In this document: in pieces, positions 37,177-50,705 of the stretch
Position numbering within the stretch: the stretch's first letter is position 1
Layout: every line of letters begins with the position of its first letter
Assembly: GCA_041662665.1 (NCBI GenBank)
Contig: JBAZSC010000002.1
Location: 5,735-69,734 of the forward strand
From: Patescibacteria group bacterium
Lineage (GTDB): Bacteria; Patescibacteriota; JABMPQ01; JAQVVF01
Length of the DNA stretch: 64,000 nt
Direction: 5' to 3'
Made by a program: the position numbers and the translations under genes
The notes under the pieces: generated by a model
Told to the model about the DNA's origin: nothing
Databases searched by the model: none
Seen by the model: the letters and a program-made list of their open reading frames with translations, nothing else

Positions 37177-37258
37177 GCCGAAGTGGCGGAATGGTTTACG
37201 CGCACGACTCAAAATCGTGTGGACTCTGTCCATAAGGGTTCGACTCCCTTCTTCGGCA
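37177..37258 (+). tRNA. tRNA-Leu (anticodon CAA), class II with a long variable arm; CCA not encoded
   Basis: Acceptor stem gccgaag/cttcggc, anticodon stem cacga/tcgtg, loop cTCAAaa, T-loop 'ggttcgactcc', discriminator A. Confidence 0.85.
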
Positions 37259-42693: not shown

Positions 42694-42713
42694 CCTCGCC
42701 CGAGGTTTTTTTA
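42693..42713 (+). terminator. Rho-independent terminator
   Basis: 'acctcg-cc-cgaggt' followed by 'ttttttt'. Confidence 0.65.
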
Positions 42714-42754
42714 ATTCGAAAATAATTAGAATATAATTCGAATAAAAATTAGAA

Positions 42755-44572
42755 TTATTCAACAGTCACACTCTTTGCCAAATTCCTCGGCTTATCCACA
42801 TCCAATCCTTTGATTTCTGCAATATGATAAGCCAGCAATTGCATTGGCACAACAGTTAACAATGGCTCAAGCAATTCTATAGTTTCTGGAATATAAATCA
42901 CGTCATCTGCATATTTTTCAATGTCAGTATTTCTCTCTGTCGTAATAGCAATAATTTTGCCTTTCCTTGCTCTTATTTCTTGCATATTACTAATTGTTTT
43001 GTCATAAACACTATCTTTTGGAACTATGAAAAAACATGGAAAATTTTCATCAATCAAGGCAATTGCGCCATGTTTCATTTCTCCAGCAGAATAGCCTTCA
43101 GCATGAATATAAGAAATTTCTTTTAACTTCAAAGCTCCTTCCAATGCCATAGGATAATTAAATCTTCTACCTAAATACAAGAAATTTTTGTAATCACGAT
43201 ATTTTTCTGCTAAATTTTTTATTTTGTCATTTTGTTCTAAAATTTTCTTTATCTTTTCTGGAATTTTCTTTATCTCTTCTGCAATATTTTTTCCTTCCAT
43301 GAAAGACAAATTTTTAAGTCTACCAAATTCTAAAGCCAAGATTGATAGAACAGTAGTTTGCGCCAAAAAAGCTTTTGTTGAAGCAACGCCAATTTCTGGT
43401 CCAGCATGAACAAAAACTCCGCCATCAGTTTCACGAGCAATCGTTGATCCAACAACATTAGAAATTCCCAAAACTTTAATACCCTTTCTCTGTATTTCTC
43501 GCATTGCTGCAATTGTGTCAGCTGTTTCACCAGATTGCGATATTACAAAAACAAGAGTATCTTTATCTAATAGAATTCTTTTATAACGCAATTCTGATGC
43601 GCATTCGACTTCACAAGGAATTGACGCGCATTCTTCAATCATGTATTTTCCAACCATTCCAGCATGCAAAGCAGTACCGCAAGCAATAAAAACAATTCTT
43701 TTGACTCTTAACATTTCTTCAATTGACATATTTAAACCGCCAAGATGAGCCAAACCTTCCGAAGATACAACTCGACCAGCTGAAGCATTTTCAACTACTT
43801 TTGGCTGTTCAAAAATTTCTTTCATCATAAAATGTTTAAAATCTTTCTTTTCAGCTAAATCCTGTTGCCAATCAATTTCATGAACTTCTGAATTAACTTT
43901 TTTATCATCAATTGTAATAGTATAAAAACCTTCTTTTGTAATTTCCACAATCTCATTTTCTTCAATATAAACCACTTTTTTCGTATAAGGAATCAAAGCT
44001 GTCGCATCAGACGCAAAATAATTTTCTCCCTCACCAACTCCCACGACTAATGGACTACCATGACGAGCTGCAACAATCCTATCTGGTTCAAGTGAAGAAA
44101 TAACAACAATACCATATGTTCCATCAATGCAAAGCAAAGCTTTTCTCACTGCTTCTTTCAAATTTCCTTCATAATATTTTTCAATCAAATGGCTTAAAAC
44201 TTCAGTATCAGTTTCTGATCTAAATTTATGACCTTCTTTAATCAATTGCTCTTTTAATTTGGCAAAATTCTCAATAATCCCATTATGAATTACTGCAATT
44301 TTTCCTTCACAATCCAAATGAGGATGAGCATTCTGATCTGTTACTCCTCCATGAGTTGCCCATCTTGTATGACCCATTCCAATTGTTCCAGCAAGATTAG
44401 TCATCTCTAAATTCTGGCCAATTCTGCCAACGCTTTTCACAAAATTAATTTTTCCATCACTGATAGTCGCCAAACCCCAAGAATCATATCCACGATATTC
44501 TAATTTTTTCAAACCATCAACTAAAATCGGTGATGCTTTTTTATTTCCGATATAAGCTATTATTCCGCACAT
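42755..44572 (-). CDS. glmS: glutamine--fructose-6-phosphate aminotransferase
   Basis: 'MCGIIAYIG' Ntn amidotransferase domain and two SIS domains. Confidence 0.9.
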   Translation of the reverse strand: MCGIIAYIGNKKASPILVDGLKKLEYRGYDSWGLATISDGKINFVKSVGRIGQNLEMTNLAGTIGMGHTRWATHGGVTDQNAHPHLDCEGKIAVIHNGIIENFAKLKEQLIKEGHKFRSETDTEVLSHLIEKYYEGNLKEAVRKALLCIDGTYGIVVISSLEPDRIVAARHGSPLVVGVGEGENYFASDATALIPYTKKVVYIEENEIVEITKEGFYTITIDDKKVNSEVHEIDWQQDLAEKKDFKHFMMKEIFEQPKVVENASAGRVVSSEGLAHLGGLNMSIEEMLRVKRIVFIACGTALHAGMVGKYMIEECASIPCEVECASELRYKRILLDKDTLVFVISQSGETADTIAAMREIQRKGIKVLGISNVVGSTIARETDGGVFVHAGPEIGVASTKAFLAQTTVLSILALEFGRLKNLSFMEGKNIAEEIKKIPEKIKKILEQNDKIKNLAEKYRDYKNFLYLGRRFNYPMALEGALKLKEISYIHAEGYSAGEMKHGAIALIDENFPCFFIVPKDSVYDKTISNMQEIRARKGKIIAITTERNTDIEKYADDVIYIPETIELLEPLLTVVPMQLLAYHIAEIKGLDVDKPRNLAKSVTVE

Positions 44573-47351: not shown

Positions 47352-47395
47352 ATTCGAAAATTAATTCGATTTATTCGAAAATTAATTAGAGTATT

Positions 47396-50300
47396 TTATA
47401 CAACTATATTAATCAATCTTCCCTTTACAAAAATCATTTTCTTAATCTTTTTTCCAACAATATATTTCATAATCTTTTCTCTCTTTTGCACAAGTTCACT
47501 TGCCTTCTCTTCAGAAATATTTGTATCAACTTCCATAAAATCTCTCACTTTGCCATTGATCTGAATAATCATTTTAACTTTTTCTTCTTTCATTTTACTT
47601 TCATCAAATAATGGCCAAGATGCTTTAAAAACACTTTCCTTATTCCCAAGCGTCTCCCACATTTCTTCACAAAAATGCGGAGCAAAAGGAGACAAAATAA
47701 TTAACAAAGTCTCTATATCAATTTTAGAAATTTTATCTTTTTGCTTATCTAACAAATTCAAAAATTCCATTGATGATGCAATGATCGTATTATAATCCAA
47801 TTCCTCAACATCATGAGTTGCTTTTTTGATTAATTTATTTCTCTGAATAACAAACACATCATCCTGAGTACCTAAGGAACTAAGTACCTGAGAAACTAAA
47901 AAGAAAAGTCTACCAAAAAAACGCTCAATTCCAACAACACCTTCATCTCTAAAATCGCCACCTTGTTTTAATGGTCCGATAAACATCAAATAAGTCCTCA
48001 AAACATCAGCGCCATATTTTTCAATATATAGATCAGGATTTACAACGTTACCTTTTGATTTTGACATCTTGGCACCATCTTTAATAATCAAACCATGCGC
48101 TCGAAATTTTTTAAAAGGCTCTTCAAAATCAATCATCCCTAAATCATGTAAAACCATTGTCACAAATCTTGTATAAAGTAAATGAAGTACAGCATGCTCA
48201 TGTCCGCCAATATACATATCAACTGGCAACCATTTTTTTGTAATCTCTTTATCAAAAGGCTGATCTTTTATATCAACACTTGGATATCTCAAAAAATACC
48301 AAGATGAATCTAAGAATGTATCTGAGACATCAGTTTCTCTTTTTGCCTCTCCTCCACATTTTGGACATTTCGTATTAACAAATTCCAAATTTCGAGCAAG
48401 AGGCGATCGATCAGTTCCGTCAGGCAAATAATCATCAGTCTTTGGCAACATTACTGGCAAATCTTCTTCTGGAACTGGAATTATACCGCTATTTATAGAA
48501 TCAGGAAATTCAAAAAGTATTTCCGGCAATTCTTTAATACCAGCAGTCTCATTGAAATGTCCTTTATTCTTAAATACACTAACTTTAGCATTTAAGACTT
48601 CATAGTCCTTTTTAACTTCTAAAGGAATATATGGATCATTATCAGACAAGTAAATTACTTTTTCTTTAACTAATTTAGACAGTTCATCTAATCCGATATT
48701 CAGTTCATTGAATTCCTTAATGATTGCTAATGCCTCGTCATCACAACCAGCATTCTTCAAATTATTCCAATTTAACTCACCTTGACTATTCCCAGTAGGT
48801 GCAACTAAAATCAATTTTTCAATATTTAACTTATTTTTCAATGCAAACTGGCAAGCAGCTGGAGCACCCAAACTATGGCCAATTAAATATATCTGGTCAT
48901 CTTTTTTAATCGGTAATTTTTCCAGCGCAGAAATCCATTCATTCATCTTCGGATGCTCATTATTTGGCAAATCAGGAATTAAAACTTCATAGCCTCTATT
49001 TTCCATTTCTTGTTTAAACCAAGGGAACCAATTTTCTTTAGAATGACCATAAATTCCGTGCACTAAAATAATTTTTGGCTTTCTCTTAGCACAACTTTCA
49101 CAATAAACGATTGGAATTGGCGGTCCCCAAAATCTTTGTCTAGAAATACACCAATCGCGTAATTTATAATTAACCACTCTCTGACCCCAACTTTTTTTTT
49201 CTAAGTAGTCCATTATTTTTTTAGTCGCATCATGAATATCTAAACCATTCAAAAAATCAGAATTAATCATTTTTCCTTCTTTTTCTTGAACCTGTTTTGC
49301 TTCTATAATTTCTGAAGTATCATTATCTTTTCCAATAACAACTCGGATAATCGGCAATTTAAATTTCTTTGCAAATTCAAAATCTCTGATATCATGACCA
49401 GGCACACCGACAACTGCACCAGTACCTACATTTCCCAAAACAAAATCAGATACCCAAATCGGCATTTTCTTACCTGTCAAATTATTAATACAATAAGCTC
49501 CAGTAAAAACGCCTGTTTTTTCTCGTCCCTCTTCAATTCTGTCTTGTTCACTTTTTGCTAATGATTTCTTAACATAATCTTCAACTTCTTTTTTATGCTC
49601 ATCAGTAACCATCTCATTCAAAACTTTACTTTCTGGCGCCAATACTACAAATGTCGCACCAAAATTAGTATCTGGTCGCGTTGTAAAACAAATTATTTTC
49701 TTGTCACTGTCAACAATTTTGTATTCAATTTCTATGCCTTCTGACTTTCCAATCCAATTTTTCTGCGCTAATTTTGTCTTTTCTGTCCAATCAATTTTAT
49801 CAATATTTTTTAATAATTTTTCAGCATAATCAGTAATCTTGAAAAACCATTGGCTCATATCTTTTTTTACAACTTCTGTTTTACATCTTTCACATAAACC
49901 AGCTTCAACTTGCTCATCAGACAAAACAGTCATACAAGAAGGACACCAATTCACAGCTGCTTTCTTTTTGTATGCCAATCCTCTTTTGTACATCTGCAAA
50001 AATAGCCATTGCGTCCATTTATAATAATTTGGATCATAGGTTTCCAAAGTCTTTGACCAATCATAAGCATTACCTATCATGTGTAATTGTTCATAAAATC
50101 TTTTCTGAGTTTTTTCTGCCATCACTGCTGGATGAATCTTATTTTTAATTGCAAAATTTTCTGAATGGATACCAAAACCATCCAATCCAATTGGTTCAAA
50201 AACATCATTGCCCTTTAATCTTTGATAGCGTCCATAAATGTCTGATCCAGTAAAAGCGTACATATTTCCAACATGCAAACCTTCAGCAGATGGATATGGA

Positions 50301-50416
50301 AACATCATCAAATTATAAAAAGGTTTGGCAGATTTTTTAACATCAACCTGATAAAGCTTTTCTTCATCCCATTTTTTCTGCCACTTTTTTTCTATTTTTT
50401 TAAAATCATATTTCAT
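47396..50416 (-). CDS. leuS: leucyl-tRNA synthetase carrying an internal YdeN/RBBP9-like alpha/beta serine-hydrolase domain insertion
   Basis: 'HVGNM' (HIGH variant), CP1 editing motifs 'TTRPDT' and 'GTGAVVGVPGHDIRD', 'ISRQRFWGPPIP', 'KMSKS', anticodon-binding and C-terminal domains. About 190 aa are inserted between 'PIPIVYC' and 'IPVPEEDLPV'. Confidence 0.9.
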   Translation of the reverse strand: MKYDFKKIEKKWQKKWDEEKLYQVDVKKSAKPFYNLMMFPYPSAEGLHVGNMYAFTGSDIYGRYQRLKGNDVFEPIGLDGFGIHSENFAIKNKIHPAVMAEKTQKRFYEQLHMIGNAYDWSKTLETYDPNYYKWTQWLFLQMYKRGLAYKKKAAVNWCPSCMTVLSDEQVEAGLCERCKTEVVKKDMSQWFFKITDYAEKLLKNIDKIDWTEKTKLAQKNWIGKSEGIEIEYKIVDSDKKIICFTTRPDTNFGATFVVLAPESKVLNEMVTDEHKKEVEDYVKKSLAKSEQDRIEEGREKTGVFTGAYCINNLTGKKMPIWVSDFVLGNVGTGAVVGVPGHDIRDFEFAKKFKLPIIRVVIGKDNDTSEIIEAKQVQEKEGKMINSDFLNGLDIHDATKKIMDYLEKKSWGQRVVNYKLRDWCISRQRFWGPPIPIVYCESCAKRKPKIILVHGIYGHSKENWFPWFKQEMENRGYEVLIPDLPNNEHPKMNEWISALEKLPIKKDDQIYLIGHSLGAPAACQFALKNKLNIEKLILVAPTGNSQGELNWNNLKNAGCDDEALAIIKEFNELNIGLDELSKLVKEKVIYLSDNDPYIPLEVKKDYEVLNAKVSVFKNKGHFNETAGIKELPEILFEFPDSINSGIIPVPEEDLPVMLPKTDDYLPDGTDRSPLARNLEFVNTKCPKCGGEAKRETDVSDTFLDSSWYFLRYPSVDIKDQPFDKEITKKWLPVDMYIGGHEHAVLHLLYTRFVTMVLHDLGMIDFEEPFKKFRAHGLIIKDGAKMSKSKGNVVNPDLYIEKYGADVLRTYLMFIGPLKQGGDFRDEGVVGIERFFGRLFFLVSQVLSSLGTQDDVFVIQRNKLIKKATHDVEELDYNTIIASSMEFLNLLDKQKDKISKIDIETLLIILSPFAPHFCEEMWETLGNKESVFKASWPLFDESKMKEEKVKMIIQINGKVRDFMEVDTNISEEKASELVQKREKIMKYIVGKKIKKMIFVKGRLINIVV
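48509..49081 (-). other. inserted serine-hydrolase (YdeN/PF06821-like) domain within leuS
   Basis: 'KIILVHGIYGHSKENWFPWFK', nucleophile elbow 'LIGHSLGA', 'LSDNDPYIP', 'NKGHFNETAG'. It is in frame and has no intein-like C...HN boundaries. Confidence 0.7.
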
Positions 50417-50462
50417 AGTATTCGAAAAATAATTCGATAAATTCGAAAATTAATTAGAGTGT

Positions 50463-50705
50463 TTAATTCGGTAATTCTTTCTCTTTCTTCTTTTTAATTA
50501 CTGGCCTTTCCTTTGGCATGCCTGGATTAAAAGGATTTTCATTCTTTTTTTCCTTGTTTGGAATTATTTCCAATTCCGACTCAGGACCATATTCTGGACG
50601 CTGAGGTCTTTCCTCGCGTTCTTCCTGTTCTCGTTTTTCATCTTGTTTTGGAACTCCCATTTCATTCTCATCTTCGCCAAAAATATTTACTTTTTCTACT
50701 GACAT
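50463..50705 (-). CDS. small K/E/P-rich disordered protein (doubtful)
   Basis: 80-aa low-complexity ORF with no SD. Confidence 0.25.
   Translation of the reverse strand: MSVEKVNIFGEDENEMGVPKQDEKREQEEREERPQRPEYGPESELEIIPNKEKKNENPFNPGMPKERPVIKKKKEKELPN

Follow-up and report, generated by a model that had tools for sequence, protein, structure and literature searches.

Hydrolytic editing modules tied to aminoacyl-tRNA synthetases occur either within the synthetase or as separate proteins, and include the CP1 domain of the leucyl-, isoleucyl- and valyl-tRNA synthetases (LeuRS, IleRS and ValRS), the INS domain of prolyl-tRNA synthetase (ProRS) with YbaK and ProXp, the editing domain of alanyl-tRNA synthetase (AlaRS) with AlaX, and D-Tyr-tRNA deacylase (DTD). 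A mixture of cis-inserted and free-standing copies is a known pattern for INS/YbaK and AlaX. Here we describe a serine hydrolase nested within LeuRS, encoded by the leuS gene of a Patescibacteria group bacterium on a 64,000-nucleotide (nt) stretch of contig JBAZSC010000002.1 (assembly GCA_041662665.1, positions 5,735 to 69,734), hereafter the window. Like the established modules, this hydrolase is tied to a synthetase and is found both in cis and as a separate protein; in contrast to them, it has an unrelated Ser-His-Asp alpha/beta-hydrolase fold, is additional to an intact CP1 domain, and has a deacylase role that is putative.

The inserted domain belongs to the PF06821 family, as do Bacillus subtilis YdeN (structure 1UXO) and human RBBP9 (2QS9/7OEX), with which it shares the small alpha/beta-hydrolase fold and aligned Ser-Asp-His motifs. 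YdeN and RBBP9 are free-standing, whereas the window domain is nested in LeuRS and falls in a LeuRS-linked subclade; the alpha-amine anchor region of RBBP9 (Glu108) did not align with the insert. A class I synthetase with an extra enzyme domain is also described by NCBIfam NF040702 (‘isoleucine--tRNA ligase, N-acetyltransferase domain-containing’), although both the synthetase and the domain differ, and the insertion in LeuRS is internal, recurs at several sites, and has a linked free-standing form. Inteins in essential genes likewise lie in frame within conserved regions and are sporadic among close relatives, but the LeuRS insert has no Hint fold, splice residues or homing endonuclease, and its enzyme domain stays in the protein. 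The combination of LeuRS and hydrolase is a variation on a familiar arrangement, in which synthetases bear accessory hydrolytic modules. No publication on such a fusion was found in the literature searched, and it is apparently undescribed in papers, while automated annotation already reflects both domains.

A serine-hydrolase domain within LeuRS

The leuS gene of the window (47396..50416, minus strand, as are all parts of the gene given below) is complete and encodes a bacterial-type LeuRS of 1006 amino acids (aa) including the inserted domain, in the open reading frame (ORF) described by an earlier note on this DNA. The protein scores 907.8 bits against the bacterial LeuRS equivalog TIGR00396 (cut-off 548.4), in a match that the insert splits into three stretches. 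Pairwise alignment to an insert-free relative, P0105, places the insert at aa 443-643 (201 aa; 48488..49090), in frame between ...WGPPIPIVYCESC and IIPVPEEDLPVMLP (CESC and IIPVPEEDLP), at a junction where P0105 reads CEKCGTVPVPEKDLP.

The family profile PF06821 (Ser_hydrolase) matches aa 449-634 of the full protein with 74.1 bits (E 1.7e-20; gathering score 22) and the insert alone with 77.7 bits. A sequence search of the PDB with the insert retrieved B. subtilis YdeN over its full length (E 5e-16) and human RBBP9 (E ~8e-8), with the nucleophile, acid and histidine motifs aligned to both. The AlphaFold2 model of the insert is of high confidence (predicted local distance difference test (pLDDT) 95.3, predicted template-modelling score (pTM) 0.92), and the top seven Foldseek matches to this model were to 1UXO, 7OEX, 2QS9 and 9FCR, with template-modelling scores of 0.72-0.83. 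When the full-length protein is modelled (pLDDT 89.7, pTM 0.77), the insert forms a well-ordered separate domain in an otherwise normal LeuRS fold. The earlier note had recognized the segment as a YdeN/RBBP9-type hydrolase from four short motifs, all of which are present in the insert, and had proposed profile searches and structure prediction as checks; profile, PDB sequence search and predicted fold now agree on that identity. The insert showed no homology to known editing or trans-editing folds (CP1, INS/YbaK, AlaX, DTD), alpha/beta-hydrolase families alone giving matches.

The predicted nucleophile is Ser515 (codon 48872..48874), within a GHSLG motif that aligns with the RBBP9 GHSSG holding Ser75. 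The predicted triad acid, Asp594 (codon 48635..48637; SDNDPYIP), and the predicted triad histidine, His620 (codon 48557..48559; KGHFNE), align with their counterparts in both YdeN and RBBP9. The catalytic Ser is invariant among 118 inserted domains and the His is kept in 116 of them, the other two having gaps at this position; such retention argues for selection for catalysis. The acid position holds Asp in 94, and Glu in 8, of the 109 inserts located within LeuRS. The hydrolase triad of the window domain is intact, and the domain is predicted from these residues to be catalytically competent.

The remainder of the protein is an ordinary LeuRS. Pfam recovers the class I catalytic domain, the editing domain (PF13603) and the anticodon-binding domain in addition to PF06821, and all LeuRS motifs are intact, including the HIGH-type motif (HVGN48), KMSKS783, and both zinc-knuckle pairs (CPSC158/CERC175 and CESC439/CPKC684). 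The CP1 editing domain (aa 219-406; 49199..49762; PF13603, 207.9 bits), the history of which differs from that of the remaining gene, retains its T-rich motif (TTRPDT245) and its editing Asp motif (PGHDIRD339). The insert starts directly after CESC (aa 439-442; 49091..49102), the CxxC knuckle that comes first in the second zinc module and whose C439 and C442 are invariant in the alignment examined; the C-terminal half (aa 644-1006; 47399..48487) follows, and contains the second knuckle (CPKC684) and KMSKS783 as well as the anticodon-binding and C-terminal domains. The window protein is thus one polypeptide comprising an intact LeuRS and a hydrolase carried in a surface loop just after CP1. It is a member of both PF06821 and bacterial LeuRS, and every defining feature of the two that could be tested is present.

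The window holds one leuS and one PF06821 domain, and the protein is named by NCBI ‘MAG: leucine--tRNA ligase [Patescibacteria group bacterium]’. As the exact protein was recovered from independent assemblies (NCBI, JGI, ENA and Logan), it is not an assembly chimera. In agreement with the earlier note, which had reported the absence of intein boundary residues, the in-frame insert starts AKRK (Ala-Lys) and ends ...INSG before IIPVP, where an intein would need Cys, Ser or Thr first and would end His-Asn followed by Cys, Ser or Thr. No direct or inverted repeats pairing the two borders were found, the GC content of the insert (0.318) is like that of the remaining gene (0.31-0.33), and the only domain that Pfam detects in it is the hydrolase, with no transposase. 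We consider it nearly certain that this is the true architecture and that the hydrolase is retained in the mature LeuRS.

A LeuRS-linked hydrolase subfamily

The earlier note treated the two LeuRS motifs bordering the insert as universally adjacent, implying that the fusion was unique, and called for an alignment with other LeuRS sequences of the candidate phyla radiation (CPR). That comparison shows the architecture to be widespread in Patescibacteria, at the same site or at others, and the junction to be a recurrent insertion site. A search with the full-length protein retrieved dozens of 90%-identity LeuRS clusters of 986-1181 aa that carry PF06821, among them clusters from Moranbacteria and Wildermuthbacteria, and JGI already names some such copies ‘leucyl-tRNA synthetase/predicted alpha/beta hydrolase family esterase’. 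An insert of ~200 aa lies at the exact window position (P0105 reference residue 445) in ~35 of the 120 best clusters. A word-index search with the insert alone, which returned mostly free-standing proteins, had first suggested that the fusion was rare; this was overturned by the full-length and exhaustive searches.

The exhaustive search (HMMER, with a junction-spanning query) gave 3206 hits, and the following tallies come from the best 150 cluster representatives. LeuRS proteins, whole or fragmentary, that bear the hydrolase make up about 60 of these, and free-standing proteins of ~190 aa another 74; every hit longer than 450 aa is a LeuRS. The hydrolase occupies the position seen in the window (site C) in ~35 of them, a position just before the CP1 T-rich motif (site A; reference 232-242) in ~12, and a late CP1 position (site B; reference 355-394) in ~8. 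A few further positions in LeuRS are also used, including one near the N-terminus. When metagenomes were scanned with the subfamily alignment, each of the 28 loci with 33% identity or more fell within leuS (most at site C, some at A and B), and none of 10 weaker hits had leuS nearby. The gene from which P0002 derives, another LeuRS-hydrolase fusion at site C, is spread over five frame-shifted ORFs on an ENA contig (L001, 5004-8041); the break-up is probably a long-read indel error rather than a sign of a pseudogene, and the histidine motif (GHF) can be read in the neighbouring frame.

In a rough neighbour-joining tree of the hydrolases, built without support values, a clade of 171 leaves is almost wholly free-standing, and 98 of the 114 leaves outside it are LeuRS inserts. 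The LeuRS-linked subclade has its own segment between the LILVAPTG and SDNDP strands. The window insert falls in a clade of 35 members, made up of 28 site-C, three site-A and one site-B inserts together with three free-standing proteins, each of which is encoded immediately beside an ordinary leuS on the same strand: P0001 lies upstream with a gap of 41 nt, P0280 lies immediately upstream, and P0248 lies downstream with a gap of 1 nt. The 933-aa LeuRS that has its free-standing hydrolase 1 nt downstream (L089, 3198-5999) also bears a ~120-aa insert at site B, and is followed by a gene for a class II synthetase (tRNA-synt_2b and HGTP_anticodon domains).

Another free-standing protein, P0272 (L093, 4570-5567), for which the window insert is the nearest relative, overlaps by 4 nt the end of a full-length D-Tyr-tRNA deacylase (dtd) gene (PF02580, 201 bits), providing a second link of the subfamily to aminoacyl-tRNA quality control. 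P0344 adjoins a serine hydroxymethyltransferase-like (SHMT-like) gene and P0289 a cytidylyltransferase-like gene, each on a short contig with one side visible, and the contig of P0244 is too short to show any neighbour.

As a negative control, we scanned 80 free-standing loci of the general family (938 kb), a set biased to the DPANN-type general family and drawn mostly from DPANN archaea and CPR bacteria; none is adjacent to leuS, and the one class I synthetase match is ~5 kb away. The general free-standing PF06821 proteins, with ENWFPWLK and SDNDPYIP motifs, were seen at more than 585 loci and are very common in CPR bacteria and DPANN archaea (Woesearchaeota, Nanoarchaeota, Micrarchaeota and Aenigmarchaeota), the ultra-small symbionts of the two domains. 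The inserted domain thus belongs to a LeuRS-dedicated PF06821 subfamily, present either at one of several sites within LeuRS or as a separate gene beside leuS, and a functional coupling of hydrolase and synthetase is quite likely.

Mosaic history of leuS and its flanks

Four genomes, including that of the window, have a common gene order of TatD, a small ORF, leuS, PRK (on the opposite strand) and Peptidase_C39_2. The LeuRS bodies of these syntenic orthologues are 92-96% identical to that of the window (81-86% in the C-terminal part), and the CP1 and insert region follows a different pattern. Among the LeuRS proteins compared, P0104-P0106 have CP1 domains 38-42% identical to that of the window and no inserts; P0107 has a CP1 45% identical and a NUDIX domain at site B; and P0103 has a CP1 84% identical, PF06821 at site A, and a ~130-aa insert at site C (aa 641-770). 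The latter has no Pfam match, and an ASCH-like identity was a guess that Pfam did not support.

The same discontinuity is visible in the nucleotide sequences of the relatives’ leuS genes (L004, 4001-7453; L005, 4001-6418; L006, 4001-6850). Identity to the window is ~90% up to aa ~220, where there is a sharp breakpoint; across CP1 it is 52-72% for L005 and L006, and 90-98% over most of CP1 for L004. There is no homology over aa 443-643, the hydrolase insert being missing from L005 and L006 and replaced in position by an unrelated insert in L004. Beyond this stretch identity is again 93-97%; against L004 it returns to about 90% or more just past the insert border, the first 60-nt bin standing at ~0.72 and those from aa 661 onwards at 0.93-0.97. 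As these sharp breakpoints indicate, the CP1 and insert region is a cassette exchanged between close lineages by recombination, and the insert is dispensable.

Other domains occur in frame at the same LeuRS hot-spots. NUDIX is found at site B in P0107, P0127 and P0213, a Ham1-like domain at site A in P0151 (together with two hydrolase domains), and an IS200-type Y1_Tnp-like domain at site A in P0169; one Patescibacteria LeuRS reaches 1442 aa with three inserts.

Directly upstream of leuS in the window lies an 80-aa Glu/Lys/Pro-rich ORF (50463-50705, minus strand) without a Pfam match, and a small ORF of 70-77 aa occupies the same place in all three syntenic relatives. The sole tRNA gene of the window, a tRNA-Leu(CAA) gene (37177-37258, plus strand), is ~10 kb from leuS.

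The gene is also flanked by a 20-nt repeat, ATTCGAAAATTAATTAGAGT, which has exactly two copies in the window, at 47373-47392 and 50441-50460; the earlier note had correctly placed it on both sides of leuS, with coordinates that were off by one base. Each exact copy is preceded on the plus strand by another unit, with which it forms a tandem pair of 21-nt period. One pair (50420..50460) occupies the whole gap from the 80-aa ORF to the leuS start codon, and the other (47352..47392) lies 3 nt after the leuS stop codon, ahead of bidirectional terminator hairpins. A degenerate copy previously noted at ~42713 is indeed there and is likewise a tandem pair (42713..42753, plus strand), directly after the stop of a 605-aa minus-strand ORF (42755-44572). 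All three tandem copies start within 1-3 nt of a minus-strand stop codon, namely that of leuS, of the 80-aa ORF or of the 605-aa ORF.

The repeat is not random: 0.07 matches are expected by chance, and none of 100 shuffles reached the three matches observed at three or fewer mismatches. In the relative L005 the element is kept upstream of leuS and is degenerate downstream, and in L004 and L006 different sequences stand at its positions. No signal of RNA structure was found in the element (z-scores -0.06 to -1.2), in which TCGAAT cores recur at spacings of ~10-11 and 21 nt, a pattern that may point to a protein-binding DNA motif. The repeats, reported earlier alongside the insert, show no sign of a link to it, as they flank the whole gene, also follow the stop of another gene, and nowhere bound the insert.

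Possible function of the inserted hydrolase

The acyl-enzyme adducts of RBBP9 carry single hydrophobic amino acids (Leu/Ile, Met, Phe, Tyr and Trp). The enzyme requires a free alpha-amine, cleaves aminoacyl amide and ester bonds, and acts as an aminopeptidase, taking off one hydrophobic residue at the N-terminus. In an entry of the reference list of PMC7730578 (Shenoy et al. 2020) it is cited as a valacyclovir-activating enzyme, valacyclovir being an aminoacyl ester of a nucleoside analogue. Like RBBP9, the inserted domain would attack the carbonyl of a hydrophobic alpha-amino acid with a free alpha-amine, freeing it from an ester or amide, and beside LeuRS the substrate would most likely be an aminoacyl ester. 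The domain may thus hydrolyse wrongly charged or unwanted aminoacyl-tRNA(Leu), or a related aminoacyl ester, adding a quality-control step alongside the still-intact CP1 site.

The deacylase idea, which the earlier note had raised as an auxiliary proofreading or deacylating activity, is plausible because this chemistry fits the 3' end of a charged tRNA, which carries an aminoacyl ester with a free alpha-amine; because the subfamily is tied exclusively to leuS; because the hydrolase is found in cis and in trans, with insertion sites that gather in and next to CP1; and because one free-standing relative, P0272, overlaps dtd. A further, weak hint that fits accessory deacylation comes from decay of the CP1 T-rich motif, which is degenerate in ~8 of 57 LeuRS with the hydrolase versus 2 of 78 without it (raw counts that ignore kinship). 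The carriers are P0120, P0121, P0169, P0136, P0137, P0245, P0258 and P0287, with motifs such as FTTTPVN, FTTAIDT, WTKFWET and FSAYPAW instead of FTTRPDT.

We put the probability that the domain is a LeuRS-dedicated hydrolase acting as an RBBP9-like aminoacyl hydrolase, our best explanation taken as a whole, at roughly 45%. Deacylation as its specific role, by analogy with RBBP9, is a more tentative proposal. Doubtful, though consistent with the distribution described above, is the broadest form of the idea, in which LeuRS-linked PF06821 would be a new, structurally unrelated class of proofreading module for aminoacyl-tRNAs or aminoacyl esters and the first alpha/beta-hydrolase editing factor, acting in cis in LeuRS and in trans beside leuS or dtd, as part of a recombining cassette of CP1 and accessory hydrolases through which Patescibacteria would adjust the quality control of translation.

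Several points weigh against our best explanation. The window protein has intact CP1 motifs, which leave no evident call for another editing site, and the very close orthologues P0104-P0106 manage without the insert, which is therefore dispensable. Adjacency was seen at few loci, with leuS as the neighbour at three and dtd at one; P0344 and P0289 have other neighbours on the one side visible, and the neighbour-joining tree lacks support values. The deacylase role would be carried over from the chemistry of the family, and we know of no alpha/beta-hydrolase that deacylates aminoacyl-tRNA. Finally, a deacylase model leaves unexplained the NUDIX, Ham1-like and Y1-transposase-like domains at the same hot-spots.

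The domain might instead supply substrate, as a leucine-releasing aminopeptidase or esterase that frees Leu or other hydrophobic amino acids near the LeuRS active site and thereby helps an auxotrophic symbiont. The aminopeptidase activity of RBBP9, its trapped Leu/Ile adducts, the exclusive tie to LeuRS, and the abundance of the general family in small-genome symbionts (DPANN archaea and CPR bacteria) all agree with such a role. Free leucine diffuses, however, so that tethering would be of little obvious benefit; it would not account for the way insertion sites concentrate at and near CP1, or for the dtd neighbour, and close relatives lack the insert. We regard this possibility as unlikely.

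That several unrelated domains, including a Y1-transposase-like one, share the same hot-spots, that close relatives dispense with the insert, and that the window LeuRS needs nothing extra are what would be expected if LeuRS loops simply tolerate insertions. The hydrolase would then be a passenger, carried for expression in a streamlined genome and performing an unrelated housekeeping reaction or none. A passenger should not, however, be confined to LeuRS and to no other long protein, recur at three or more different sites and as a separate gene beside leuS in both orders, or conserve its catalytic Ser and His, and the general family showed no linkage to leuS; we find this account improbable.

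A role in defence is less likely still. The domain could hydrolyse a naturally occurring inhibitor of LeuRS, for example a mimic of an aminoacyl-nucleoside or aminoacyl-adenylate, with the variable cassette reflecting an arms race. Bodies 92-96% identical do differ in CP1 type and inserts across sharp recombination breakpoints, the co-occurring NUDIX and Ham1-like inserts are hydrolases of nucleotide derivatives, and the compound that RBBP9 is cited, in the reference-list entry above, as activating is an aminoacyl ester of a nucleoside analogue. Recombination by itself does not show diversifying selection, though, and this system has no known inhibitor, producer gene or resistance phenotype; we regard the defensive role as speculative and quite improbable.

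There is next to no chance that the insert lies outside the mature LeuRS as an intein, a mobile element or an assembly artefact, despite its sporadic occurrence among close relatives: the absence of a Hint/intein domain (Pfam) and of splice-junction residues argues against the first, borders free of terminal direct or inverted repeats, a hydrolase reading frame that uses up all 603 nt, and GC and GC3 (GC at third codon positions) like those of the remaining gene speak against the second, and the identical protein in independent assemblies, with more than 100 related inserted copies recovered, argues against the third.

Current views attribute proofreading by aminoacyl-tRNA synthetases to a few editing folds, to which an aminoacyl hydrolase of the Ser-His-Asp type recruited repeatedly and specifically by LeuRS would, if our best explanation is true, add one. 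The link to LeuRS would likewise place the orphan YdeN/RBBP9 family in a physiological setting, and it bears on the accuracy of translation in ultra-small symbionts with minimal genomes. The broader pattern, of a LeuRS-dedicated subfamily at multiple sites, a recombining CP1 cassette and other hydrolases in the same hot-spots, may be of more interest than the single gene; it indicates that near-identical strains can exchange the editing region of an essential enzyme as a cassette.

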